Source: Escherichia coli
Lineage (GTDB): Bacteria > Pseudomonadota > Gammaproteobacteria > Enterobacterales > Enterobacteriaceae
Assembly: GCF_003019035.1 (NCBI RefSeq)
Contig: NZ_CP027447.1
DNA length: 64,000 nt
Strand: one strand, 5' to 3'
The first letter of the stretch is position 1, and each line of letters begins with the position of its first letter. Of this stretch, positions 10,804 to 31,240 are shown in pieces. A program made the position numbers and the translations under genes. The notes below the pieces were generated by a model. The model was not told where the DNA came from, did no database searches, and saw nothing but the letters and a program-made list of their open reading frames with translations.

Positions 10804-11623
10804 AAGGATAAATGGCGTTCTCTGTATTTATTCGCAATTATCTGTAGGACAAATATGGAGAGCTTGATGAGTCAGAGCTAAAACAGCAATTGATTAATAA
10901 ACATGTTGATTTATTCAAGAAAATGGATGTATTTTAAATATTGATTCTTAATATAACCTAATCAATAGATTATCACGTGAGAGCTGCACATTATTGGAGG
11001 GGCAGGGGAAAACACCATTTTGGGAACAATGCATCAGGTACTCTTACCACTGAAGCAAGATCATCCGGGCACCAGGTGGTGGTGCAGTGCTTTGGAAATG
11101 GTCCCCTCGGGGGAGTTGTCATTATTTTCTATGCTATTTGCTTATTATATTCATCAGGTGAATTTAATAAATTCCTAATTTGAAATATCCACTATTAAGC
11201 TAGTGTTTAACGACGTTAAGATGGCAATGTGCAGATCATGTTATCAGGGTGGGGCGGTAGCGTATATTCCTTATACAAACCATCATTCATTTCAATGATT
11301 GTTATTGAATTATTTATTGTTGTGAATAAAAAGACATTATGAATATTGGTTTGACTTTGCATATCAGGTTTTTTATTACTCGCTGTAATGTACGAGCCTG
11401 TCGTGAATAACGTCGAGAACCCATCCGTTGCGTTTGTGATTATTTTGTTGACTAAACAGACACCCGTTTCTCTGAAGTAAAATCCCAGACTAAATCATCA
11501 CATAACCATGACATTTTTCTGATATTCCCCGGTAACGCCAGATGTCGACTCGCTTATCTCATCCGCCCGACATGTTGTACATGCAATATGTGCGGATTAT
11601 TATTCATTTTCACGGAGGTTGCT

Positions 11624-13732
11624 ATGTCAACCGGATTACGTTTCACGCTGGAAGTGGACGGCCTGCCACCGGACGCGTTTGCGGTGGTTTCCTTTCATCT
11701 CACCCAGTCACTCTCTTCACTTTTTTCCCTTGACCTTTCTCTGGTCAGTCAGCAGTTTCTCTCCCTTGAATTTGCGCAGGTGCTGGACAAAATGGCCTAC
11801 CTGACGGTATGGCAGGGCGATGACGTACAGCGCCGGGTGAAAGGCGTGGTGACCTGGTTTGAACTCGGGGAGAACGACAAAAACCAGATGCTGTACAGCA
11901 TAAAGGTGCGCCCGCCGCTGTGGCGGGCAGGACTGCGTCAGAACTTCCGTATCTTCCAGAACGAGGACATCAGAAGCATCCTCGGCACCATACTGCAGGA
12001 AAATGACGTCACGGAGTGGAGTCCGCTGTTCAGCGAGCCGCATCCTTCCCGTGAGTTTTGTGTCCAGTACGGCGAAACCGATTACGATTTCCTGTGCCGG
12101 ATGGCGGCGGAGGAAGGCATCTTCTTTTATGAGGAGCACGCGCAAAAAAGTACCGACCAGAGCCTGGTCCTGTGCGACACCGTGCGTTATCTGCCGGAGT
12201 CCTTTGAGATCCCCTGGAATCCGAACACCCGTACCGAGGTGAGCACCCTATGCATCAGCCAGTTCCTCTACAGCGCACAAATCCGCCCATCTTCCGTGGT
12301 GACCAAAGACTACACCTTTAAACGACCCGGCTGGGCAGGGCGTTTTGATCAGGAAGGCCAGCACCAGGATTACCAGCGCACACAGTATGAAGTGTATGAC
12401 TACCCCGGACGTTTCAAGGGTGCCCACGGGCAGAACTTTGCCTGCTGGCAGATGGATGGCTGGCGAAACAACGCAGAAGTGGCGCGCGGAACAAGCCGTT
12501 CGCCGGAGATATGGCCGGGACGGCGAATTGCGCTGACGGGGCATCCGCAGGCGAACCTGAACCGGGAATGGCAGGTGGTGGCAAGTGAACTGCACGGCGA
12601 GCAGCCGCAGGCGGTGCCGGGACGCAGTGGTTCAGGTACCACGCTGAATAACCACTTTGCGGTAATACCGGCAGACAGAACATGGCGGCCACAGCCGTTG
12701 CTGAAACCGCTGGTGGACGGCCCGCAGAGCGCCGTCGTGACGGGACCGGCAGGAGAAGAAATCTTCTGTGATGAACATGGCCGCGTGCGGGTGAAATTTA
12801 ACTGGGACCGTTATAACCCGTCAAACCAGGACAGTTCATGCTGGATCCGTGTGGCACAGGCGTGGGCAGGCACCGGGTTTGGTAACCTGGCGATACCGCG
12901 TGTGGGTCAGGAGGTCATTGTGGACTTCCTCAACGGCGATCCGGACCAGCCGATTATTATGGGGCGCACCTACCACCAGGAAAACCGCACCCCCGGCAGC
13001 CTGCCGGGAACAAAGACGCAAATGACCATTCGTTCAAAAACCTATAAGGGCAGCGGGTTTAATGAACTGAAGTTTGACGATGCGACAGGGAAAGAACAGG
13101 TCTACATCCACGCGCAGAAGAACATGAACACCGAGGTGCTGAATAACCGCACCACGGATGTGATAAACAACCATGCTGAGACCATCGGCAACAATCAGGT
13201 GATTGCGGTTACCAACAATCAGATACAGACGGTGGGCGTTAACCAGATAGAGACGGTGGGCAGTAACCAGATCATTAAAGTGGGCTCTGTTCAGGTGGAA
13301 ACGATTGGACTTGTTCGTGCGCTGACTGTGGGCGTGGCGTATCAGACGACGGTAGGTGGCATTATGAACACCTCGGTGGCCCTGATGCAGTCCTCGCAGA
13401 TCGGTTTGCATAAATCGTTGATGGTCGGGCTGGGTTATGACGTCAAAGTCGGAAATAACGTTACCTTCACCGTTGGTAAAACGAAAAAGGATGATACCGG
13501 GCAGACCGCGATTTACTCCGCCGGTGAGCATCTGGAACTCTGCTGTGGTAAGGCAAGGCTGGTGCTGACTAAGGACGGACAAATTTTTCTCAACGGCACA
13601 AAAATTCATTTGCAGGGTAAGGAGCAGGTTAATGGTGACTCACTGTTGATTAACTGGAACTGTGCAGCCTCGAAATCCCCACCGAAGACCCCTGATGAAA
13701 AGCAGGATACGCCGGATATGAGAGAGTACTGA
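11624..13732 (+). CDS. vgrG: Type VI secretion spike protein VgrG, 702 aa
   Basis: ATG at 11624 with GGAGG ribosome-binding site; gp27/gp5-like VgrG sequence (…VDFLNGDPDQPIIMGRTYHQEN…); followed 66 nt later by an rhs start. Confidence 0.85.
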   Translation: MSTGLRFTLEVDGLPPDAFAVVSFHLTQSLSSLFSLDLSLVSQQFLSLEFAQVLDKMAYLTVWQGDDVQRRVKGVVTWFELGENDKNQMLYSIKVRPPLWRAGLRQNFRIFQNEDIRSILGTILQENDVTEWSPLFSEPHPSREFCVQYGETDYDFLCRMAAEEGIFFYEEHAQKSTDQSLVLCDTVRYLPESFEIPWNPNTRTEVSTLCISQFLYSAQIRPSSVVTKDYTFKRPGWAGRFDQEGQHQDYQRTQYEVYDYPGRFKGAHGQNFACWQMDGWRNNAEVARGTSRSPEIWPGRRIALTGHPQANLNREWQVVASELHGEQPQAVPGRSGSGTTLNNHFAVIPADRTWRPQPLLKPLVDGPQSAVVTGPAGEEIFCDEHGRVRVKFNWDRYNPSNQDSSCWIRVAQAWAGTGFGNLAIPRVGQEVIVDFLNGDPDQPIIMGRTYHQENRTPGSLPGTKTQMTIRSKTYKGSGFNELKFDDATGKEQVYIHAQKNMNTEVLNNRTTDVINNHAETIGNNQVIAVTNNQIQTVGVNQIETVGSNQIIKVGSVQVETIGLVRALTVGVAYQTTVGGIMNTSVALMQSSQIGLHKSLMVGLGYDVKVGNNVTFTVGKTKKDDTGQTAIYSAGEHLELCCGKARLVLTKDGQIFLNGTKIHLQGKEQVNGDSLLINWNCAASKSPPKTPDEKQDTPDMREY

Positions 13733-13815: not shown

Positions 13816-15106
13816 CAGGGAAAGATCATCAGAAGTACACTTTTTGTACTAAACAATTCGCATTTTATGTTTAAAAATTGAGATATTCCTCATTACCTGA
13901 AGCTGTTTTTTATTGCTTATACATGATCAAATACTCCTTACATAATTAAGGAGAACAAAATGGAACTTAAAAAATTGATGGAGCATATTTCTATTATCCC
14001 CGATTACAGACAAGCCTGGAAAGTGGAACATAAATTATCGGACATTCTACTGTTGACTATTTGTGCCGTTATTTCTGGTGCAGAAGGCTGGGAAGATATA
14101 GAGGATTTTGGGGAAACACATCTCGATTTTTTGAAGCAATATGGTGATTTTGAAAATGGTATTCCTGTTCACGATACCATTGCCAGAGTTGTATCCTGTA
14201 TCAGTCCTGCAAAATTTCACGAGTGCTTTATTAACTGGATGCGTGACTGCCATTCTTCAGATGATAAAGGCGTCATTGCAATTGATGGAAAAACGCTCCG
14301 GCACTCTTATGACAAGAGTCGCCGCAGGGGAGCGATTCATGTCATTAGTGCGTTCTCAACAATGCACAGTCTGGTCATCGGACAGATCAAGACGGATGAG
14401 AAATCCAATGAGATTACAGCTATCCCAGAACTTCTTAACATGCTGGATATTAAAGGAAAAATCATCACAACTGATGCGATGGGTTGCCAGAAAGATATTG
14501 CAGAGAAGATACAAAAACAGGGAGGTGATTATTTATTCGCTGTAAAAGGAAATCAGGGGCGGCTTAATAAAGCCTTTGAGGAAAAATTTCCACTGAAAGA
14601 ATTAAATAATCCAGAGCATGACAGTTACGCAATGAGTGAAAAGAGTCACGGCAGAGAAGAAATCCGTCTTCACATTGTTTGCGATGTCCCTGATGAACTT
14701 ATTGATTTCACGTTTGAATGGAAAGGTCTGAAGAAATTATGCGTGGCAGTCTCCTTTCGGTCAATAATAGCAGAACAAAAGAAAGAGCCAGAAATGACGG
14801 TCAGATATTATATCAGTTCTGCTGATTTAACCGCAGAGAAGTTCGCCACAGCAATCCGAAACCACTGGCACGTGGAGAATAAGCTGCACTGGCGTCTGGA
14901 CGTGGTAATGAATGAAGACGACTGCAAAATAAGAAGAGGAAACGCCGCAGAATTATTTTCAGGGATACGGCACATCGCTATTAATATTTTAACGAATGAT
15001 AAGGTATTCAAGGCAGGGTTAAGACGTAAGATGCGAAAAGCTGCCATGGACAGAAACTATCTCGCGTCAGTCCTTGCGGGGAGCGGGCTTTCGTAATCTT
15101 TCCCTG
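13816..15106 (+). mobile_element. H-repeat (ISAs1-family) insertion sequence, copy 1, about 1291 bp
   Basis: Terminal inverted repeats cagggaaagat… (13816) and …atctttccctg (ending 15106); encloses the transposase gene. Confidence 0.75.
13960..15096 (+). CDS. H-repeat-associated (ISAs1-family) transposase, 378 aa
   Basis: Track ORF; about 99% identical to the ORFs at 18738..19874 and 26492..27628. Confidence 0.85.
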
Positions 15107-16889
15107 GCTGCTGGAGTTCACGCGCGACCGCCTGCACCGGGAGACGGTGCGCAGCTTCGGCAGCATGGCAGGCAGTAATGCCGCATACGAACTGACCAGC
15201 ACATACACCCCCGCAGGCCAGTTACAGAGCCAGCACCTGAACAGCCTGGTATATGACCGTGACTACGGGTGGAGTGACAACGGCGACCTGGTGCGCATCA
15301 GCGGCCCGCGACAGACGCGGGAATACGGCTACAGCGCCACGGGCAGGCTGGAGAGTGTGCGCACCCTCGCACCGGACCTGGACATCCGCATCCCGTATGC
15401 CACGGACCCGGCGGGCAACCGGCTGCCGGACCCGGAGCTGCACCCGGACAGTACACTCACAGTGTGGCCGGATAACCGAATCACCGAAGACGCGCACTAC
15501 CTGTACCGTTACGATGAATACGGCAGGCTGACGGAGAAGACGGACCGCATCCCGGCGGGTGTGATACGGACGGACGACGAGCGGACCCACCACTACCGCT
15601 ACGACAGCCAGCACCGCCTGGTGTTCCACACGCGGATACAGCATGGCGAGCCACTGGTCGAGAGCCGCTACCTCTACGACCCGCTGGGACGGCGAATGGC
15701 AAAACGGGTCTGGCGGCGGGAGCGTGACCTGACGGGGTGGATGTCGCTGTCGCGTAAACCGGAGGAGACATGGTACGGGTGGGACGGCGACAGGCTGACG
15801 ACGGTGCAGACTGACACCACACGTATCCAGACGGTCTACCAGCCGGGGAGCTTCACGCCGCTCATCCGTATCGAGACAGAGAACGGCGAACGGGAGAAAA
15901 TGCAACGCCGCAGCCTGGCGGAGAAGTTACAGTCGGAAGGGAGTGAGGACGGTCACGGTGTGGTGTTCCCGGCTGAGCTGGTGAGGATGCTGGACAGGCT
16001 GGAGGAAGAAATCCGGGCAGACCGCGTGAGCAGTGAAAGCCGGGCGTGGCTTGCGCAGTGCGGGCTGACGGTGGAGCAACTGGCCAGACAGGTGGAGCCG
16101 GAATACACACCGGCGCGAAAAGTTCATTTTTACCACTGCGACCACCGGGGCCTGCCGCTGGCGCTCATCAGCGAAGACGGCAATACGGTGTGGAGCGGGG
16201 AGTATGATGAATGGGGCAACCAGCTTAATGAGGAGAACCCGCATCATGTGTATCAGCCATACCGCCTGCCGGGGCAGCAGTATGATGAGGAGTCGGGGCT
16301 GTACTATAACCGCAACCGGTACTATGATCCGTTGCAGGGGAGGTATATTACCCAGGATCCGATTGGGCCGGTGGGGGGGTGGAATCCCTATAGTTATGTG
16401 CTTATTAATCCAGCCCAGTTTATTGACCCAACAGGTTTAACTCAAGAGGACAATTGGACCTATGGTGAGGTAGGTAATAGCTGTGTTACGAGTCAACGCG
16501 ATTTTACTCCCCCGCCCGGACTTGCGGATATGAAAGCCAGCATTGGCGCTGCCTGCTCAAGAAACAATGCTTCCAGAAACTGCCACCCCGTAGATGGTAG
16601 TAATGCTTCTGCACCATCGGATAAAGCCGCATGGGAAAATATTCAAAATGCGACAAATGGTAAAGATTTATCTGGTGGTGGAAATATGTTTTGTGTAGGA
16701 AATGAGGACTGTGCGGTTGTTCATAGCTGTCGTGAAATAGTTAATGCTCGACACCCGGCAGGACGAGTGCGTGAACGTGTAACTCCGTTAACAACGTCAG
16801 GAACAGCAACGCTCAATGGAACAACAGTTTACTTTTATAATGATCCCCGGAATGGCAATTGTCCTGCTCACGAATATATTCCTCAATAA
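15107..16889 (+). pseudogene. N-terminally truncated rhs: 3' core (YD repeats) plus a distinct Cys-rich C-terminal tip
   Basis: Near-identical at nucleotide level to 23994..25260 of the full-length rhs; track ORF 15147..16889; tip after the DPxGL-type core boundary (…IDPTGL) is unrelated to the full-length tip. Confidence 0.75.
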
Positions 16890-16939
16890 AGAAAAGTGGC
16901 CAGACTAAGCTCTAGCCACATTTTTTGGAGATCCTTTTC

Positions 16940-17563
16940 ATGAAAAGGTTTTTTATAACATGTTGCGTTATGACATTATTTTTATTTGTTAAATGTAAAG
17001 CAGCGTGTGTAACTTCCTTATATGAGGTTCAGCAATCGCTCTTTACATACATTTATTTGATTAGACAAGACCCTGTTCATTTTGATTCATATATTAAGAA
17101 TGTGCATAACGAATTAAAAATATTCCATGATATTGATAAAGCAATGAATATAGCCTCAGATATGGTCAAAATTATTGATATAAAGACCCGTTTATCATTT
17201 AATAATGATTTATATATATTACAAGGGGAACGACAGTATGCAATAGTTAAGAGTGAAGGGGAAAGTAGTCAATTAAAATCATCAGCATTTATCATATCTA
17301 ATTACCCACTATTTAAAAACAAAGTTCTGTTAATTTTATCCGCTACTAGTCCCGTTCAGTTGGTTATATTGTCTTTTGATCAATGTCTTAATGTGGAGGT
17401 GTTATTTGATTCAATGTCTCCAGTTTTCGCTAAGTATAGAGAAGATATTAGTGCAACATTACCATTATGGAAGGTTATTTTGACAAAAAATGATATAGAA
17501 TTATATGAGTACCATAGAACAAATCCATACTCACTTAACAAATTATTGAGCATGTCAAAATAA
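16940..17563 (+). CDS. Putative cognate immunity protein with signal peptide, about 207 aa
   Basis: ATG at 16940 with GGAG ribosome-binding site; AT-rich; directly downstream of the rhs tip; N-terminal hydrophobic signal-like segment. Confidence 0.55.
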   Translation: MKRFFITCCVMTLFLFVKCKAACVTSLYEVQQSLFTYIYLIRQDPVHFDSYIKNVHNELKIFHDIDKAMNIASDMVKIIDIKTRLSFNNDLYILQGERQYAIVKSEGESSQLKSSAFIISNYPLFKNKVLLILSATSPVQLVILSFDQCLNVEVLFDSMSPVFAKYREDISATLPLWKVILTKNDIELYEYHRTNPYSLNKLLSMSK

Positions 17564-18004: not shown

Positions 18005-18593
18005 CAGGGCAAGATCATGAAAATCGTGATGTAAATCACAATTTTCAACCTGGCTTTAACTCCTTCAGGAGATTAAAATTTAACCTATGGAATAACTAAA
18101 AAGATAAAAAAGGACGCCAGATGAGTATTCAAAGTTTGCTTGATTATATTTCAGTGTTCCCTGATATACGACAACAAGGAAAGGTTAAACATAAATTATC
18201 TGATATTTTGTTTCTCACCGTATGTGCAGTAATTGCAGGTGCCGATGAGTGGCAGGAAATTGAAGATTTTGGACATGAAAGACTGGAATGGCTAAAGAAA
18301 TATGGTGATTTTGATAATGGCATTCCGGTCGATGACACCATTGCACGCGTTGTGAGTAACATTGACAGTTTGGCCTTTGAAAAGATGTTTATTGAATGGA
18401 TGCAGGAGTGCCATGAAATCACTGATGGTGAAATTATAGCAATAGATGGAAAGACCATAAGAGGCTCCTTTGATAAGGGAAAAAGGAAAGGAGCAATCCA
18501 TATGGTGAGTGCATTCTCGACTGAAAATGGTGTTGTACTGGGGCAGGTGAAAACGGAAGCCAAAAGTAATGAGATTACAGCCATTCCAGAGTT
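18005..18593 (+). mobile_element. Remnant B of an ISAs1-family element, interrupted by intact copy 2
   Basis: IR-like end cagggcaagatcatgaaaatcg at 18005; transposase 5' ORF from 18121; homology stops at 18593 where copy 2 IR-L begins. Confidence 0.55.
18121..18593 (+). pseudogene. ISAs1-family transposase N-terminal fragment (about 158 codons, divergent paralog)
   Basis: Track ORF 18121..18630 reads through into the next element's end; roughly 60-70% identical by eye to the intact H-repeat transposase. Confidence 0.6.
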
Positions 18594-19884
18594 CAGGGAA
18601 AGATCATCAGAAGTACACTTTTTGTACTAAACAATTCGCATTTTATGTTTAAAAATTGAGATATTCCTCATTACCTGAAGCTGTTTTTTATTGCTTATAC
18701 ATGATCAAATACTCCTTACATAATTAAGGAGAACAAAATGGAACTTAAAAAATTGATGGAACATATTTCTATTATCCCCGATTACAGACAAGCCTGGAAA
18801 GTGGAACATAAATTATCGGATATTCTACTGTTGACTATTTGTGCCGTTATTTCGGGTGCAGAAGGCTGGGAAGATATAGAGGATTTTGGGGAAACACATC
18901 TCGATTTTTTGAAGCAATATGGTGATTTTGATAATGGTATTCCTGTTCACGATACCATTGCCAGAGTTGTATCCTGTATCAGTCCTGCAAAATTTCACGA
19001 GTGCTTTATTAACTGGATGCGTGACTGCCATTCTTCAGATGATAAAGACGTCATCGCAATTGATGGAAAAACACTCCGGCATTCTTATGACAAGAGTCGC
19101 CGCAGGGGAGCGATTCATGTCATTAGTGCGTTCTCAACAATGCACAGTCTGGTCATCGGACAGATCAGGACGGATGAGAAATCCAATGAGATCACAGCTA
19201 TCCCTGAACTTCTTAACATGCTGGATATTAAAGGAAAAATTATCACAACTGATGCAATGGGTTGCCAGAAAGATATTGCAGAGAAGATACAAAAACAGGG
19301 CGGTGATTATTTATTCGCTGTAAAAGGAAATCAGGGTCGGCTAAATAAAGCCTTTGAGGAAAAATTCCCACTGAAAGAATTAAATAATCCAGAACATGAC
19401 AGTTACGCAATGAGTGAAAAGAGTCACGGCAGAGAAGAAATCCGTCTTCACATTGTTTGCGATGTCCCTGATGAACTTATTGATTTCACGTTTGAATGGA
19501 AAGGTCTGAAGAAATTATGCGTGGCAGTCTCCTTTCGGTCAATAATAGCAGAACAAAAGAAAGAGCCAGAAATGACGGTCAGATATTATATCAGTTCTGC
19601 TGATTTAACCGCAGAGAAGTTCGCCACAGCAATCCGAAACCACTGGCACGTGGAGAATAAGCTGCACTGGCGTCTGGACGTGGTAATGAATGAAGACGAC
19701 TGCAAAATAAGAAGAGGAAACGCCGCAGAATTATTTTCAGGGATACGGCACATCGCTATTAATATTTTGACGAATGATAAGGTATTCAAGGCAGGGTTAA
19801 GACGTAAGATGCGAAAAGCTGCCATGGACAGAAACTATCTCGCGTCAGTCCTTGCGGGGAGCGGGCTTTCGTAATCTTGCCCTG
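18594..19884 (+). mobile_element. H-repeat (ISAs1-family) insertion sequence, copy 2, about 1291 bp
   Basis: IR-L cagggaaagatcatcag at 18594; IR-R …atcttgccctg ending 19884; same length as copy 1. Confidence 0.75.
18738..19874 (+). CDS. H-repeat-associated (ISAs1-family) transposase, 378 aa
   Basis: Track ORF; near-identical to copies 1 and 3. Confidence 0.85.
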
Positions 19885-19896
19885 CTTTGTAATGGT

Positions 19897-20079
19897 ATGG
19901 CAGGAGGATATGAATTTGCAGTAAGTAAATTTGGTCAGTCGGCCTATGATGCCGCACAGGAAAAAGCATTAAATAACTATATGGAATTTGAAATGTTAGA
20001 TTTATTACAAAGCATGGGAGAGAATGTCAATCCAGATGAATATAAGCAGGCGCATGATAGAGTTGTTAATCCAAATTGA
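19897..20079 (+). CDS. Small hypothetical protein, about 60 aa, possibly a toxin-tip remnant
   Basis: ATG at 19897 just after copy 2 IR-R; track ORF 19852..20079 starts inside the insertion sequence; ends 15 nt before the next gene's ATG. Confidence 0.3.
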   Translation: MAGGYEFAVSKFGQSAYDAAQEKALNNYMEFEMLDLLQSMGENVNPDEYKQAHDRVVNPN

Positions 20080-20093
20080 ATGCAGAGGGGAGT

Positions 20094-20657
20094 ATGTTAT
20101 TAAAACTGATAATGTTATTTTCAATATTTTTTATCCCGTTTTTGGCAGGTTGCAGTATGTTTGATGATGTTTTTGAGAAAAACTACTCATTGAGTTCTGT
20201 CGCCAGTTTTCCAGATGACGTTGATGAATTAAAAGAAATATGGTTTTTTTGTGAAAGATGTTTAAGTGATGAGCAGTGCGAAAATCATGACATTAAACAA
20301 TGTAGAGATGTAACTATTCCCGGTAGAGATGAAGCATTAAGTAAAGCTGTAGGCAGAGCCAATGTCGAAGCTGTTTACTTTCTTGTTGATGTGGCAAAAA
20401 CTGATGTCAATGGTATTACAGGTAAATATAAGGAAACACCATTAATTATTGCTGCATATTATGGAACTCAAGCACATCAGGATATAGCTGAATTTTTGCT
20501 ATTGCATGGGGCAGATATTAATAAAACTTACCCAGCCATTGGGCGAAATCCTCTAGGTGTCGCCAGATGGAAGCATAATGTCGATTTCGTTAATTTTCTA
20601 CTGAAGCATGGTGCTGAACCAGCAGTACATATGGGGTCGATTGAGAATAAAGAGTGA
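20094..20657 (+). CDS. Ankyrin-repeat lipoprotein, about 187 aa, immunity-like
   Basis: ATG at 20094 with GAGGGGA ribosome-binding site; lipobox FLAGC; ankyrin repeats (…TPLIIAAYYG…LLLHGADIN…). Confidence 0.6.
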   Translation: MLLKLIMLFSIFFIPFLAGCSMFDDVFEKNYSLSSVASFPDDVDELKEIWFFCERCLSDEQCENHDIKQCRDVTIPGRDEALSKAVGRANVEAVYFLVDVAKTDVNGITGKYKETPLIIAAYYGTQAHQDIAEFLLLHGADINKTYPAIGRNPLGVARWKHNVDFVNFLLKHGAEPAVHMGSIENKE

Positions 20658-21100
20658 GATTTAACAAAAATGCAATTCATGCTCTCGCCTTGGGTGACGG
20701 TATTGATACTGCTTTTAAGTGTTCAGGAAAAATGGAAAGTGGTAAACCCTTAAAATCTTCGGGCAAATGGGATTACTCTGTTGGTGGGACAAATGGTGCC
20801 TTTCTTTATCTTAAAGACTATTCAAATATTTTGACGGCTGGCCACACAGGAAATCTGGCAGTTACTTTTCTTGGAAGTTACAATGCTCAATATTCAATAA
20901 ACGGAAACTCTCTGGATGTAGTTGTAACAAATTCTTCAACGATACAATCAGCGACACATCCCCCAATCCTGGAGTATACAAAATGGTGGCAGGATAATAT
21001 TGGTAATCCTTTGGATAGAAAATTTCAAAAAGGTCCCACGTCCCCAAAAACACAAACCATAAATTTACACTTTGATTTGTCATGTGCGTGCAAAAAATGA
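20654..21100 (+). CDS. Hypothetical protein, 148 aa, no signal peptide
   Basis: Track ORF with GTG start overlapping the upstream stop (GTGA) and stop overlapping the downstream ATG; no recognisable domain. Confidence 0.35.
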   Translation: MRFNKNAIHALALGDGIDTAFKCSGKMESGKPLKSSGKWDYSVGGTNGAFLYLKDYSNILTAGHTGNLAVTFLGSYNAQYSINGNSLDVVVTNSSTIQSATHPPILEYTKWWQDNIGNPLDRKFQKGPTSPKTQTINLHFDLSCACKK

Positions 21101-21480
21101 AAATTTTATTTATGTTATTATTAATTATCTTGAGTGGATGTGATGGCGAAAATGATGCCAAATTTGTTGGGCAATGGCTTGCTGATATTGATGGTGATAT
21201 AAAATCAGAATTGATCGTGAAGGCAAATGGAATTTTTTATTTCAAGAATATGCCTATGGAGACAGTTTGTCGCGAGGATAAAACATATAAGGCTAATTTT
21301 TTCGGGGATTGGACTATTAATATTGACAATAGGATTGATATTTCAATGGATAATGTTAATTCTGAACGGTGTAATATTCCATCCTCGTATTTAATTAATG
21401 GGTTTTATGATGGTGGATATTTTTTATGTCAGAAAGGATTGTCTTTTTTCCAGACGGACCTGATGAGCCAGGTAATATGA
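21097..21480 (+). CDS. Small lipoprotein, about 127 aa, immunity-like
   Basis: ATG at 21097; lipobox ILSGC; AT-rich. Confidence 0.45.
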   Translation: MKILFMLLLIILSGCDGENDAKFVGQWLADIDGDIKSELIVKANGIFYFKNMPMETVCREDKTYKANFFGDWTINIDNRIDISMDNVNSERCNIPSSYLINGFYDGGYFLCQKGLSFFQTDLMSQVI

Positions 21481-21549: not shown

Positions 21550-24500
21550 ATGAGCGGAAAACCCGCGGCACGCCAGGGTGATGCCACGCTGAAAGGCGGT
21601 CCGATAGTCCAGGGGTCAGCGGGGGTGCTGATAGGCGCGCCCACCGGCGTGGCGTGCTCGGTGTGTCCGGGCGGGATGACTTCGGGCAACCCGGTAAATC
21701 CGCTGCTGGGGGCGAAGGTGCTGCCCGGCGAGACGGACCTTGCCCTGCCCGGCCCGCTGCCGTTCATTCTCTCCCGCACCTACAGCAGCTACCGGACGAG
21801 GACGCCTGCCCCGGTGGGCGTTTTCGGCCCCGGCTGGAAAGCGCCTTCGGATATCCGCTTACAGCTACGTGATGACGCACTGATACTCAACGACAACGGC
21901 GGGCGGAGCATTCACTTTGAGCCGCTGCTGCCGGGGGAGGCGGTGTACAGCCGCAGCGAGTCAATGTGGCTGGTGCGCGGTGGTAAGGCAGCGCAGCCGG
22001 ACGGCCACACGCTGGCGCGACTGTGGGGGGCGCTGCCGCCGGATATCCGGTTAAGCCCGCATCTTTACCTGGCGACCAACAGCGCACAGGGGCCGTGGTG
22101 GATACTCGGCTGGTCAGAGCGGGTGCCGGGTACTGAGGACGTACTGCCAGCGCCGCTGCCGCCGTACCGGGTGCTTACCGGGCTGGCGGACCGCTTCGGG
22201 CAGACGCTGACGTACCGGCGTGAGGCCGCCGGTGACCTGGCCGGGGAAATCACCGGCGTGACGGACGGTGCCGGGCGGAAGTTCCGTCTGGTGCTGACCA
22301 CGCAGGCGCAGCGTGCGGAAGAGGCCCGCACCTCTTCGCTATCTTCTTCTGACCGTTCCCGCCCTCTCTCAGCCTCAGCGTTCCCCGACACACTGCCCGG
22401 TACGGAATACGGCCCCGACAGGGGCATCCGTCTTTCGGCGGTGTGGCTGATGCACGACCCGGCATACCCGGAAAGCCTGCCCGGTGCGCCACTGGCGCGG
22501 TACACGTATACGGAAGCCGGTGAACTGCTGGCGGTATATGACCGCAGCAATACGCAGGTGCGCGCTTTCACGTATGACGCGCAGCACCCGGGCCGGATGG
22601 TGGCGCACCGTTACGCGGGAAGGCCGGAGATGCGCTACCGCTACGACGATACGGGGCGGGTGGTGGAGCAACTGAACCCGGCAGGGTTAAGCTACCGCTA
22701 TCTTTATGAGCAGGACCGCATCACCATCACGGACAGCCTGAACCGGCGAGAGGTGCTGCATACAGAAGGCGGGGCCGGGCTGAAGCGGGTGGTGAAAAAA
22801 GAACTGGCGGACGGCAGCGTCACGCACAGCGGGTATGACGCGGCAGGAAGGCTCACGGCACAGACGGACGCGGCGGGACGGCAGACAGAGTACGGTCTGA
22901 ATGTGGTGTCAGGCGATATCACGGACATCACCACGCCGGACGGGCGGGAGACGAAATTTTACTATAACGACGGGAACCAGGTGACGGCAGTGGTGTCCCC
23001 GGACGGGCTGGAGAGCCGCCGGGCGTATGATGAGCGGGACAGGCTGGTAACGGAGACATCGCGCAGTGGGGACGTCATCCGGTATGCTTATGATAATCCG
23101 CACAGTGAATTACCGGCCACGACAACAGATGCGACGGGCAGCACCCGGCAGATGACCTGGAGCCGCTACGGGCAGTTGCTGGCGTTCACCGACTGCTCGG
23201 GCTACCAGACCCGCTATGAATACGACCGCTTCGGCCAGATGACGGCGGTCCACCGCGAGGAAGGCATCAGCCTTTACCGCCGCTATGACAACCGTGGCCG
23301 GTTAACCTCGGTGAAAGACGCACAGGCCCGTGAAACGCAGTATGAGTACAACGCCGCAGGCGACCTGACTGCCGTTATCACCCCGGATGGCAACCGGAGT
23401 GAGACACAGTACGATGGGTGGGGAAAGGCCATCAGCACCACGCAGGGCGGGCTGACGCGCAGTATGGAGTACGATGCTGCCGGACGTATCACCACGCTGA
23501 CTAACGAGAACGGCAGCCACAGCGACTTTAGTTACGATGCGCTGGACCGCCTGATACAGCAGGGCGGCTTTGACGGGCGGACGCAACGTTATCATTATGA
23601 CCTGACCGGAAAACTCACGCAGAGTGAAGATGAGGGGCTTGTCATCCTCTGGTACTACGATGAATCGGACCGTATTACTCACCGCACGGTAAACGGTGAA
23701 CCGGCAGAACAGTGGCGGTATGACGGCCACGGCTGGCTGAGAGAAATCAGCCACCTGAGCGAAGGCCACCGTGTTGCCGTCCACTATGGCTATGATAATA
23801 AAGGCCGCCTGACCAGTGAGCGCCAGACGGTGCATCACCCGGAGACGGGAGAGCTGCTCTGGCAGCATGAGACCGGACATGCGTACAACGAACAGGGGCT
23901 GGCAAACCGCGTCACGCCGGACAGTCTGCCGCCGGTGGAGTGGCTGACCTATGGTAGCGGTTATCTGGCAGGCATGAAGCTGGGCGGGACGCCGCTGCTG
24001 GAGTTCACGCGCGACCGCCTGCACCGTGAGACGGTGCGCAGCTTCGGCAGCATGGCAGGCAGTAATGCCGCATACGAACTGACCAGCACATACACCCCTG
24101 CAGGCCAGTTACAGAGTCAGCACCTGAACAGCCTGGTGTATGACCGTGACTACGGGTGGAATGACAACGGAGACCTGGTGCGCATCAGCGGCCCGCGACA
24201 GACGCGGGAATACGGCTACAGCGCCACGGGCAGGCTGGAGAGTGTGCGCACCCTCGCACCGGACCTGGACATCCGCATCCCGTATGCCACGGACCCGGCG
24301 GGCAACCGGCTGCCGGACCCGGAGCTGCACCCGGACAGTACACTCACAGTGTGGCCGGATAACCGCATCGCGGAGGATGCGCACTATGTCTACCGCCACG
24401 ATGAATACGGCAGGCTGACGGAGAAGACGGACCGCATCCCGGCGGGTGTGATACGGACGGACGACGAGCGGACCCACCACTACCACTACGACAGCCAGCA

Positions 24501-25803
24501 CCGCCTGGTGTTCTACACGCGGATACAGCATGGCGAGCCACTGGTCGAGAGCCGCTACGTCTACGACCCGCAGGGACGGCGAATGGCGAAACGGGTATGG
24601 CGGCGGGAGCGTGACCTGACGGGGTGGATGTCGCTGTCGCGTAAACCGGAGGTGACGTGGTACGGCTGGGACGGCGACCACCTGACGACGGTGCAGACCG
24701 ACAGCACACGTATCCAGACGGTATACGAGCCGGGAAGCTTCACACCGCTCATCCGCATCGAAACAGACAACGGCGAGCGGGAGAAAACGCAGCGGCGGAG
24801 CCTGGCGGAGAAGCTCCAGCAGGAAGGGAGCGAGGACGGACACGGTGTGGTGTTCCCGGCTGAACTGGTGAGGATGCTGGACAGGCTGGAGGAAGAAATC
24901 CGGGCAGACCGCGTGAGCGGTGAAAGCCGGACGTGGCTTGCACAGTGCGGGCTGGCGGTGGAGCAACTGGAAAAACAGGTGGAGCCGGAATACACGCCGG
25001 AACGCACACTGCATCTTTACCACTGCGACCACCGGGGACTGCCGCTGGCGCTTATCAGCGAAGACGGCAATACGGTGTGGAGCGCGGAGTATGATGAATG
25101 GGGAAACCTGCTTAATGAGGAGAACCCGCATCATGTGTATCAGTCATACCGTCTGCCGGGGCAGCAGCATGATGAGGAGTCGGGGCTGTATTATAACCGG
25201 AACCGGTACTATGACCCGCTACAGGGGAGGTATATCACCCAGGATCCAATCGGGCTAAGAGGTGAATGGAATCTGTATAAATATCCATTAAACCCTGTTC
25301 GGTTTATAGATTCTTTGGGTTTAAAATTCCATGTTAACGGTGATCCAAGTGATTTTAATCAGGCTGTTGAGTATTTAAAACAAGATTCACGAATGAAAGA
25401 AGCTATAGATTTTTTATCAAGCTCTGAAGAAACCATAAAGATAGAGTATATTGATGAAACCGACGTTAGATTTGACCCGGATAAAATGACTATATATTGG
25501 AATGGTAAGGCGGCTTTATTTTGTTCAACTGATTTAAAATCGAAATCACAATCACCTGCATTAGGTTTGGGGCATGAGTTTGCTCATGCGCACTTATATC
25601 TTATTGATAAGGATGGTTATATGGGGCTTGTGAGACGTGCGGATGAACAATATAAAAATAAAGAAGAGGCGAGAGTTATCACTTTAATTGAACAGCATGC
25701 GGCGAAAACTTTAGGTGAGTGTACCAGAACAGCATATAATGGAGTGTATTATCGTGTGAATACACCAACGCAGACGGCAACAATAAATGGCACGCCAGAA
25801 TAG
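21550..25803 (+). CDS. Full-length Rhs polymorphic toxin, 1417 aa: PAAR-like N-terminus, YD-repeat shell, HExxH-containing C-terminal tip
   Basis: Track ORF with AAGGAG ribosome-binding site; N-terminus [11 protein letters not shown]…; repeated YD motifs; core boundary …YITQDPIGL…IDSLGL; tip contains [10 protein letters not shown]. Confidence 0.9.
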
Positions 25804-25815
25804 TGAGATTTTTTT

Positions 25816-26265
25816 ATGATGAAATATTTGATGGTTTTATTGTCTCTATTTTCTGCTTCGGTATTGGGGATGGGGCGAGTGAATGAATTGTGTGGAATAG
25901 ATAGTGTGAAAACGATAGAAATAATTAATCTTCCAGCATATGTTACCACCTTAACCCCGCTTAGCAAGGAAGGTCTCAAGAGAATATACAAACATAAAGT
26001 GGTGGTGAATGGAGTTAGCGATTTTTATGCTGGTGAGATAATTGATTTATTGCAAATGAAGTATTTCAGGAAGGAGGAGAATAACGATATAAGATGGGGG
26101 GTTGACATTGTTTCGAATAAAAATAATAAATGTGAAATTTATTTTGATGGTTTTGGTGAATGTGGAAGTGTGAATGGCATTAACGTATGTTTTGAAAAAA
26201 ATGAAATGATAGATTGGATTAAAAAAGAAATCCCTTTTCTGTCGCAAGAAATAGGTGGTCTTTAA
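25816..26265 (+). CDS. Putative cognate immunity protein with signal peptide, 149 aa
   Basis: Track ORF 13 nt after the rhs stop; AT-rich; N-terminus MMKYLMVLLSLFSASVLG. Confidence 0.55.
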   Translation: MMKYLMVLLSLFSASVLGMGRVNELCGIDSVKTIEIINLPAYVTTLTPLSKEGLKRIYKHKVVVNGVSDFYAGEIIDLLQMKYFRKEENNDIRWGVDIVSNKNNKCEIYFDGFGECGSVNGINVCFEKNEMIDWIKKEIPFLSQEIGGL

Positions 26266-26322: not shown

Positions 26323-27638
26323 CAGGGAAAGATCACGTAACGCTGCTCAGGGAAAGATCACGTAACGCTGCTTTTTTGTACTAAACAATCCGCATTTTAT
26401 GTTTAAAAATTGAGATATTCCTCATTACCTAAAGCTGTTTTTTATTGCTTATACATGATCAAATACTCCTTACATAATTAAGGAGAACAAAATGGAACTT
26501 AAAAAATTGATGGAACATATTTCTATTATCCCCGATTACAGACAAGCCTGGAAAGTGGAACATAAATTATCGGATATTCTACTGTTGACTATTTGTGCCG
26601 TTATTTCGGGTGCAGAAGGCTGGGAAGATATAGAGGATTTTGGGGAAACACATCTCGATTTTTTGAAGCAATATGGTGATTTTGATAATGGTATTCCTGT
26701 TCACGATACCATTGCCAGAGTTGTATCCTGTATCAGTCCTGCAAAATTTCACGAGTGCTTTATTAACTGGATGCGTGACTGCCATTCTTCAGATGATAAA
26801 GACGTCATCGCAATTGATGGAAAAACACTCCGGCATTCTTATGACAAGAGTCGCCGCAGGGGAGCGATTCATGTCATTAGTGCGTTCTCAACAATGCACA
26901 GTCTGGTCATCGGACAGATCAGGACGGATGAGAAATCCAATGAGATCACAGCTATCCCTGAACTTCTTAACATGCTGGATATTAAAGGAAAAATTATCAC
27001 AACTGATGCAATGGGTTGCCAGAAAGATATTGCAGAGAAGATACAAAAACAGGGCGGTGATTATTTATTCGCTGTAAAAGGAAACCAGGGGCGGCTAAAT
27101 AAAGCCTTCGAGGAAAAATTTCCGCTGAAAGAATTAAATAATCCAGAGCATGACAGTTACGCAATGAGTGAAAAGAGTCACGGCAGAGAAGAAATCCGTC
27201 TTCACATTTTTTGCGATGTCCCTGATGAACTTATTGATTTCACGTTTGAATGGAAAGGTCTGAAGAAATTATGCGTGGCAGTCTCCTTTCGGTCAATAAT
27301 AGCAGAACAAAAGAAAGAGCCAGAAATGACGGTCAGATATTATATCAGTTCTGCTGATTTAACCGCAGAGAAGTTCGCCACAGCAATCCGAAACCACTGG
27401 CACGTGGAGAATAAGCTGCACTGGCGTCTGGACGTGGTAATGAATGAAGACGACTGCAAAATAAGAAGAGGAAATGCAGCAGAATTATTTTCAGGGATAC
27501 GGCACATCGCTATTAATATTTTGACGAATGATAAGGTATTCAAGGCAGGGTTAAGACGTAAGATGCGAAAAGCAGCCATGGACAGAAACTATCTGGCGTC
27601 AGTCCTTGCGGGGAGCGGGCTTTCGTAATCTTTCCCTG
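26323..27638 (+). mobile_element. H-repeat (ISAs1-family) insertion sequence, copy 3, with a 25-bp tandem duplication at its left end
   Basis: cagggaaagatcacgtaacgctgct occurs twice in tandem (26323..26372); IR-R …atctttccctg ends at 27638. Confidence 0.7.
26492..27628 (+). CDS. H-repeat-associated (ISAs1-family) transposase, 378 aa
   Basis: Track ORF; near-identical to copies 1 and 2. Confidence 0.85.

Positions 27639-30014: not shown

Positions 30015-31240
<1,226 letters not shown>

Follow-up and report, generated by a model that had tools for sequence, protein, structure and literature searches.

What does the variable end of an Rhs protein attack when it carries a metallopeptidase signature and is followed by a small protein that seems to be exported? 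This question is raised by a locus in the stretch of 64,000 nucleotides of Escherichia coli DNA analysed here (contig NZ_CP027447.1, which as a whole will be called the window), where an rhs gene of 1417 codons ends in a toxin tip containing an HExxH string, and an open reading frame (ORF) of 149 amino acids follows it. [quoted passage not shown] The locus is a recognisable member of a catalogued class of toxins and not a new kind of system, and its interest rests on the periplasmic substrate that is still to be found, on the close match in predicted structure of so small a domain to the botulinum light chains, and on an immunity family that crosses phyla. The features on which the argument turns are the following:

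21550..25803, + strand: intact rhs gene, 1417 amino acids (carrier, shell and toxin tip), a single ORF
25324..25800, + strand: toxin domain, 159 amino acids (K1259-E1417), predicted M91-like / botulinum light-chain-like zinc metallopeptidase
25573..25587, + strand: HEFAH (residues 1342-1346; H1342, E1343, H1346), predicted to supply zinc ligands and the catalytic base, invariant in 20 of 20 homologues and placed on helix 78-94 of the domain
25663..25674, + strand: EEAR (E1372, E1373, R1375), predicted to provide the third ligand of the zinc, from the "glutamate helix" (113-129), with domain E114/E115/R117 invariant
25690..25737, + strand: E1381 … R1393-T-A-Y1396, the E-x11-RxxY motif that would shape the active site, with domain E123 and R135 invariant
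25816..26265, + strand: putative cognate immunity gene, 149 amino acids, "dsORF-h1" family, starting 12 nt past the rhs stop, with homologues that adjoin the toxin elsewhere
25816..25875, + strand: predicted Sec signal peptide, residues 1 to ~18-20, with an n/h/c layout and a predicted local distance difference test score (pLDDT) below 50 for residues 1-19

Catalytic motifs, family and fold of the tip

A reading made earlier from the sequence alone had pointed to the HExxH string in the tip, which is indeed present in the translation, and had proposed from it a toxin of the metallopeptidase type. By itself the string is not significant evidence; 0.095 copies are expected by chance in each protein with the composition of this one. 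However, the HExxH of the tip exceeds chance, because it is invariant in all 20 homologues, which belong to several phyla, and because of the fold predicted around it. The invariant positions of the 20-sequence alignment (A1) are, in domain numbering, W59, the ten residues 76-85, H88, A89, E114, E115, R117, V118, E123, A126, A127, L130, E132, R135 and G140, and they include the three residues of the HExxH (H84, E85 and H88). The whole set of motifs, HExxH, a downstream glutamate and E…RxxY, lies in order in the window tip (H1342/E1343/H1346, E1372/E1373, E1381, R1393..Y1396), and NleD presents it in the same order (HELLH…EEAR…RRTSY). This set is common to the M91 peptidases and BoNT, the third-ligand glutamate being found in both, and E350 and R363-x-x-Y366 being conserved BoNT/M91 features (PMC6367388). 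At domain position 138, at least 90% of the family has a histidine and the window tip a tyrosine; in other words, most members of the family read R-x-D-H, and the window allele reads R-x-x-Y, as do NleD and BoNT.

As regards the family, which the sequence-only reading had left open, the evidence supports a zincin that is M91-like (HopH1/NleD-type) and has a core like that of the botulinum light chains. Among 5.8 billion proteins searched with the tip, 25 relatives were found, including two from Hafnia alvei, 43-45% identical to the tip, that are annotated by NCBI as "M91 family zinc metallopeptidase", and when 1.84 billion cluster representatives were searched with a profile, 2412 reached E ≤ 1e-3 and 139 reached E ≤ 1e-30, the representatives of the tip family lying mostly at the C-termini of long carriers. 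When the Pfam M91 model was compared with the 20 family members individually, 10 reached E ≤ 1e-3 and 19 reached E ≤ 0.1, the best value being 6.6e-9. The membership of the window tip in M91 (PF14891) is transitive only, because half of its homologues pass the Pfam model and the tip itself fails it. Thus, the proposal of a metallopeptidase-type toxin is supported computationally by the invariant motifs, by the match of Pfam M91 to half of the homologues, even if it stays below threshold for the tip, and by the predicted fold. To judge from its sequence, the tip would form a separate subfamily, marked by a ten-residue motif ending in HE (domain 76-85), that Pfam M91 captures in part.

Other assignments have been tried and rejected. 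The NCBIfam scan of the tip gave nothing beyond the end of the Rhs core. The tip is not a close relative of NleD, because the BLASTP comparison with the NleD of the Sakai prophage Sp3 (E 0.69) and the hhalign tests were negative, and a plain NleD homologue was consequently discarded after these direct tests with NleD and with an NleD-clade profile. The Tox-MPTase1-5 families (PF15638-PF15641 or related) were discarded as well, since neither the tip nor any of the 20 homologues matched them at E ≤ 10.

The fold was modelled with AlphaFold2 from A1, the best model having a pLDDT of 94.4 and a predicted template-modelling score (pTM) of 0.90. In this model a mixed sheet at the N-terminus is followed by helix 78-94, which carries H84/E85/H88, and helix 113-129, which carries E114/E115/E123, an arrangement that corresponds to the layout of the zincins. 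With the HExxH predicted on a helix, and no non-peptidase fold having turned up, the model agrees with what the sequence-only reading had supposed. The structural neighbours of the model are the BoNT light chains, GtgA and NleC, that is, proteases with specific protein substrates; the model resembles the catalytic core of the BoNT light chains (M27), and no structural similarity was found to PDB 6H56 (the C-terminal domain of VgrG2b). According to the literature, the M91 peptidases are the nearest known relatives of the BoNT light chains apart from the BoNT-like toxins. A domain of 159 residues whose predicted structure is so close to these light chains could offer a compact and safe model for their catalytic core and its evolutionary origin.

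The predicted exported partner and a proposed mode of action

The 149-amino-acid protein that had been noticed downstream of the tip, with its hydrophobic, signal-like start, is present, and its N-terminus reads MMK-YLMVLLSLFSASVLGMG-R, that is, one positive charge and 17 uncharged residues with a mean Kyte-Doolittle hydropathy of 1.84, with small residues at -3/-1 (VLG/M or GMG/R, the slash marking the site). The signal peptide was called by a hand-made check of the n/h/c layout and of the -3/-1 positions, and the same traits appear in all nine sequences of the alignment of the family (A2), with one to three positive charges, 11-17 uncharged residues and small residues at -3/-1 (such as SYA/K, VQA/K and GKA/D). 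A typical membrane helix would need a longer h-region, and a Sec signal peptide is predicted. A lipoprotein was considered and rejected, as there is no lipobox and NEL stands before the first cysteine (residue 26). There are four cysteines in the mature E. coli protein.

Close relatives of this protein occur only in E. coli and Shigella; those of E. coli that are 83-85% identical to it bear the name "RHS element protein dsORF-h1", the window allele being annotated as "hypothetical protein". The distant homologues were found by following the toxin homologues to their contigs and reading the ORF directly after the toxin. In this position there is a homologue of the window protein in Hafnia alvei (BLASTP E 3e-23), in Mixta tenebrionis (E 2e-11), in a metagenome-assembled genome (MAG) of Omnitrophica (E 7e-10), in one metagenome lineage (E 0.01), and in a second metagenome lineage, whose Rhs has a Sec signal of its own (hhalign 91%, E 1.1e-6), so that the adjacency of immunity protein and toxin extends to six lineages. 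The earlier suggestion of an exported immunity protein, and of a toxin acting in the periplasm or envelope, gains support from this co-conservation and from the signal-like N-termini predicted in nine of the nine sequences. This co-conserved, exported protein would represent a natural inhibitor of such proteases.

Starting from what is seen computationally, namely the intact gene, the family, motifs and predicted fold of its tip, the signal-like N-terminus and co-conservation of its partner, the linkage to vgrG and, in other strains, the linkage to a T6SS cluster, a mode of action can be proposed, in which delivery by the T6SS, autocleavage, the periplasmic site, a substrate that is a protein and not peptidoglycan, and inhibition by binding are the steps that we infer. 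The Rhs shell would enclose the tip and the PAAR-like N-terminus would seat the protein on the VgrG spike; once the protein had been fired into a neighbouring Gram-negative cell, the aspartyl autoprotease of the Rhs would free the tip near DPIGL…DSLGL, and the tip would remain in the periplasm of the target. There, with zinc held by H1342/H1346/E1373, water activated by E1343 and the transition state stabilised by R1393/Y1396, the enzyme would cut one or a few envelope proteins. Sister cells would be guarded by the 149-amino-acid protein, which would be exported by Sec, lose its signal peptide and bind the protease in the periplasm; with a periplasmic target, the producer would need no cytoplasmic antidote. 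There is no room in the tip for an inner-membrane entry domain, because the protease fold takes 147 of its 159 residues, and a protein substrate is favoured because the structural neighbours are, without exception, endoproteases specific for proteins.

A more specific version of this proposal, which we advance tentatively and to which we would give somewhat less than an even chance, is that the tip is a minimal, ancestor-like botulinum/NleD protease core of ~160 residues, which kills bacteria by cutting one specific conserved protein of the periplasm or envelope (for example, a lipoprotein or a factor of cell division or envelope assembly), and that the dsORF-h1 family is a dedicated periplasmic inhibitor found across phyla. 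If this were true, the substrate would be a new antibacterial target and the tip the smallest experimental model of the M27/M91 catalytic core.

A number of results weigh against the proposal of a periplasmic M91-like toxin delivered by the T6SS, and they are best considered together. With respect to the family, the Pfam scan of the tip gave Peptidase_M91 only below threshold (E 0.056-0.079), searches of the PDB sequences, by phmmer with the tip and by the family profile, found no chain at E ≤ 10, and hhalign of A1 with NleD or with a 12-sequence NleD-clade profile gave a probability of 0.3-0.6% with only the HExxH helix aligned. With respect to the fold, four of the five AlphaFold2 models have a pLDDT of only 70-75, and a Foldseek search of the PDB returned nothing at E ≤ 0.001, though BoNT/E light chains are among the top hits. 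With respect to delivery, no T6SS core genes lie within the 64-kb window, and insertion sequences intervene between vgrG and the rhs gene. With respect to the site of action, the 17-residue h-region of the immunity protein could serve as a signal anchor, and the domain is not always found in the company of this protein: it ends a 2426-amino-acid SpvB-TcdB_mid-Rhs protein similar to the toxin-complex (Tc) toxins (locus L065, 1501-8781), where a resolvase gene comes next and an immunity gene is lacking, a hint that the domain is used there against eukaryotes, and it occurs in ~40 Candidatus Eremiobacterota genomes (loci L011-L058) as stand-alone copies of 150-170 amino acids with the exact QSPALGLGH motif, at loci where neither a carrier nor a signal peptide nor a conserved ORF downstream is present. 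In view of this Tc-like carrier and these stand-alone copies, the family is not intrinsically periplasm-directed; the catalytic module has served against more than one kind of target, and the assignment to the periplasm is therefore limited to the branch linked to the immunity protein. Finally, full-text literature searches yielded no biochemical characterisation of any antibacterial member and no reported substrate.

The tips of Rhs proteins form a repertoire of toxins used between bacteria. Most characterised Rhs tips act on targets in the cytoplasm, which counts in favour of a cytoplasmic site of action here too, and which would make a protease tip retained in the periplasm a member of a less-studied class. 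A cytoplasmic endopeptidase is what a preprint on Shiga toxin-producing E. coli (STEC) assumes (10.1101/2024.03.05.583533), the immunity protein of the Salmonella Dublin system has been described with one transmembrane (TM) segment (PMC8867033), and the h-region of the E. coli protein, with its 17 residues, is fairly long. However, the h-regions of the homologues, with 11-15 residues and classic -3/-1 sites, are too short for a TM helix, the positive n-region would put most of the immunity protein in the periplasm even if it were uncleaved, the tip offers no additional sequence for translocation across the inner membrane, and carriers with a Sec signal exist in the tip family (P0015, P0142), so that a cytoplasmic target seems to us distinctly improbable. 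If the toxin stays in the periplasm, it might be a peptidoglycan peptidase that cuts stem peptides or cross-links and not a protein-specific endoprotease, as both the Salmonella Dublin paper (PMC8867033) and a 2025 review (PMC12288458) list the PAAR-Rhs-M91 effector either as a "peptidoglycan hydrolase" or among those with targets in the cell wall; an exported immunity protein is compatible with either substrate. But the Salmonella label is a prediction only, the neighbours of the model named above cut specific proteins, the M91 enzyme that founded the family cleaves JNK and p38 (PMC9846239; PMC6367388), no Pfam or NCBIfam cell-wall peptidase family matches the tip, and the periplasmic metallopeptidase VgrG2b showed no peptidoglycan hydrolase activity (PMC6899460), all of which makes a cell-wall substrate unlikely.

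The M91 and BoNT relatives act on eukaryotic proteins, and it could be asked whether the tip is mainly anti-eukaryotic, cleaving host signalling proteins in the manner of NleD, with a downstream ORF that is not an immunity gene, all the more so as the Tc-like carrier lacks such a gene. This we regard as very improbable: a small exported homologue tightly co-conserved directly downstream in six lineages is the signature of a bacterial toxin and its immunity protein, the Salmonella pair behaves as effector and immunity between bacteria (PMC8867033), and the window locus is a classic antibacterial vgrG-rhs island. The remaining alternative is that of a decaying or silent remnant, inactive today, in which the HExxH is kept by descent only. 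The closest genomes annotate their own copies of rhs as frameshifted or partial pseudogenes, the insertion sequences part rhs from vgrG, and the promoter scan upstream of rhs gave four promoter-like sites against 3.2 expected, none of them convincing. In the window, however, the frame of 1417 codons is uninterrupted and covers the whole RHS_core model, all the residues of the catalytic motifs are intact, and the immunity ORF is intact and closely spaced, so that we would give this alternative almost no weight.

The Rhs carrier, its locus and its alleles

21550..21918, + strand: N-terminal PAAR-like segment, then DUF6531 (residues 46-123; Pfam E 1.1e-18)
25243..25323, + strand: end of the conserved core, with the demarcation and presumed autoproteolysis region (DPIGL 1232-1236 … DSLGL-ending motif 1249-1258)
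11588..13732, + strand: vgrG, 714 amino acids, intact ORF, probable T6SS spike partner (TIGR03361, 623.8 bits)
26492..27628, + strand: ISAs1 (H-repeat) transposase gene, 378 amino acids, an ORF that bounds the module downstream, at a place annotated as ISAs1 in related genomes

The NCBIfam RHS_core equivalog NF041261 spans residues 1-1258 with 2717 bits, against a cut-off of 2000, and YD_repeat_2x and Rhs_assc_core also match; as the RHS_core model is matched from end to end and the ORF is uninterrupted, the Rhs is full length, as had been claimed from the sequence. The N-terminus contains a literal KPAARQGD, the match to the Pfam PAAR_motif being weak (E 0.28, residues 3-28), and a primer for the Salmonella protein SED_RS06335, which is called PAAR-RHS, encodes matching N-terminal residues (PMC8867033). 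Inside the shell there is a second HExxH, HETGH (residue 773, 23866-23880), which is a chance occurrence. RHS_core and Rhs_assc_core both stop at residue 1258, and residues 1249-1258 form a demarcation of the PxxxxDPxGL type with S replacing P. The sequence-only reading had placed the start of a tip of roughly 180 amino acids at 25261 (residue 1238), which does follow the first DPIGL, but the variable toxin domain has 159 amino acids and not ~180, because the conserved core extends past DPIGL to residues 1249-1258. Autocleavage near this boundary would be expected from the known biology of the Rhs and Tc proteins. The GC content is 0.60-0.69 in the rhs core and 0.34-0.38 across the tip and the downstream ORF, which is the usual discontinuity between Rhs core and tip. 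The tip has been swapped relative to the rhsE of K-12, and rhsE/ydcD of K-12, compared as a possible instance of the same module, was rejected as unrelated.

The window holds an E. coli vgrG/rhs island, flanked by yncH and nhoA, the corresponding site of K-12 being occupied by the rhsE pseudogene. In SCU-301, the closest complete genome, the annotated order is pqqU-yncE-ansP-yncG-yncH-vgrG-ISAs1-rhs fragments-…-rhs-hypothetical-ISAs1-GNAT-yddH-nhoA. The vgrG gene lies ~7.8 kb upstream of rhs, with copies of ISAs1 and orphan rhs modules in between; it is intact in the window, a pseudogene with an internal stop according to the annotation of the closest complete genome, and truncated in strain 41. 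In strain 1190, a tip and immunity pair 100% identical in protein is found after hcp-vgrG inside a tssB-tssG cluster. The terminator scan around the rhs gene was uninformative.

The three ISAs1 transposase genes (13960-15096, 18738-19874 and 26492-27628) are near-identical, their copies being 98-99% identical in DNA, including ~120 bp upstream of each, and there is a partial copy at 18121-18630. The full-length rhs and the immunity gene sit between the second and third copies, downstream of orphan fragments, and this order, which is the reverse of the usual one with the main gene first, suggests a rearrangement mediated by insertion sequences. One of these orphans is an Rhs C-terminal fragment of 580 amino acids (15147-16889), which covers RHS_core positions 833-1261, carries a different tip (residues 432-580) and is followed by a 212-amino-acid ORF (16925-17563) without a family match; ~300 nt of its core are 98% identical to the main gene at 23994-24293. 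Farther on, a short tip remnant (19852-20079) precedes an ankyrin-repeat protein with a lipobox (20076-20657; …FLAGC), a 148-amino-acid ORF (20654-21100) and a 132-amino-acid ORF with a lipobox (21082-21480; …LSGC), and the region 19852-21480 probably consists of orphan toxin/immunity cassettes, at least two of whose products are predicted lipoproteins. Just beyond nhoA, an ORF of 326 amino acids (30035-31015, - strand) occupies a position that SCU-301 annotates as an IS110-like IS621 family transposase.

The window module or its sister allele is present in 1084 of 5426 complete E. coli genomes, ~40 of them at ≥99% identity to the window and 979 at 80-90%. The sister allele, with an RhsH-type tip and dsORF-h1, is the common form, at the same yncH-vgrG-rhs-ISAs1-yddH-nhoA locus, and the window represents the rarer one; no functional study of this E. 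coli RhsH-type/dsORF-h1 allele turned up in the collection of papers searched. With a module or sister allele in about one in five complete genomes, the system probably shapes the competition between strains in the gut. The two alleles (25324-26265 against locus L060, 9001-9944) are 87% identical in DNA, 72.5% in the amino acids of the toxin and 85% in those of the immunity protein, and they differ at the RxxY/H position, with RTAY in the window allele and RGAH in the common one. For toxin/immunity pairs it is unusual that the toxin has diverged more than the immunity protein, and one may ask whether the two alleles cross-protect. On a contig of 1670 bp from a MAG labelled Collinsella sp. (locus L009) there is an E. 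coli-type Rhs tip 73% identical to that of the window, most likely on an enterobacterial contig misbinned in an actinobacterial MAG.

Comparison with known systems

HopH1/NleD-like metallopeptidases were catalogued among the tips of polymorphic toxins in 2012 (Zhang et al., PMC3482391). NleD shares with the window tip the motif order HExxH…EEAR…RTxY of the NleD/HopH1 family (Pfam PF14891), but NleD is an effector of the type III secretion system that acts on host JNK/p38, whereas the window tip is borne by an Rhs, fails PF14891 (E ~0.06) and would form a distinct subfamily. The light chains of BoNT and tetanus toxin (M27) are alike in the predicted fold of the catalytic core, although they have ~430 amino acids and the tip ~160. 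The window tip has none of the SNARE-binding insertions, belt, translocation and receptor domains of BoNT, with a different carrier and a different target organism, and M91-type enzymes in general lack the BoNT insertions (PMC6367388).

Among antibacterial systems, the VgrG2b C-terminal domain of Pseudomonas aeruginosa (Tpe1-Tpi1, PDB 6H56) offers a similar mode of action, that of a zinc metallopeptidase delivered by the T6SS, with a structure that is not similar to that of the window tip; its toxicity is restricted to the periplasm, and its immunity protein depends on a signal peptide (PMC6899460). In the same species, Tpe2 is another predicted M91 effector of the T6SS (PMC9846239). The Rhs-MPTase4 of STEC (Tox-MPTase4, PF15640) is likewise a metallopeptidase with HExxH at the tip of an E. 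coli Rhs protein, but of a different family, and an Rhs-M91 has been seen in silico in a STEC strain by authors who leave its activity and substrate open (10.1101/2024.03.05.583533).

In published architecture, the window locus is matched by the PAAR-RHS-Peptidase_M91 protein SED_RS06335 of the Salmonella pathogenicity island SPI-19 of Salmonella Dublin, which, as in the window, is an Rhs of ~1400 amino acids with matching N-terminal residues and an M91-type HExxH tip (PMC8867033). Its immunity protein, SED_RS06340, is likewise encoded downstream by a small gene and has a hydrophobic segment at its N-terminus, but it has 110 amino acids and is given "1 TM", against 149 amino acids here (PMC8867033). 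This SED_RS06335/SED_RS06340 pair behaves in competition as an antibacterial effector and its immunity protein, prey without the pair being recovered 2.4-fold less (PMC8867033).

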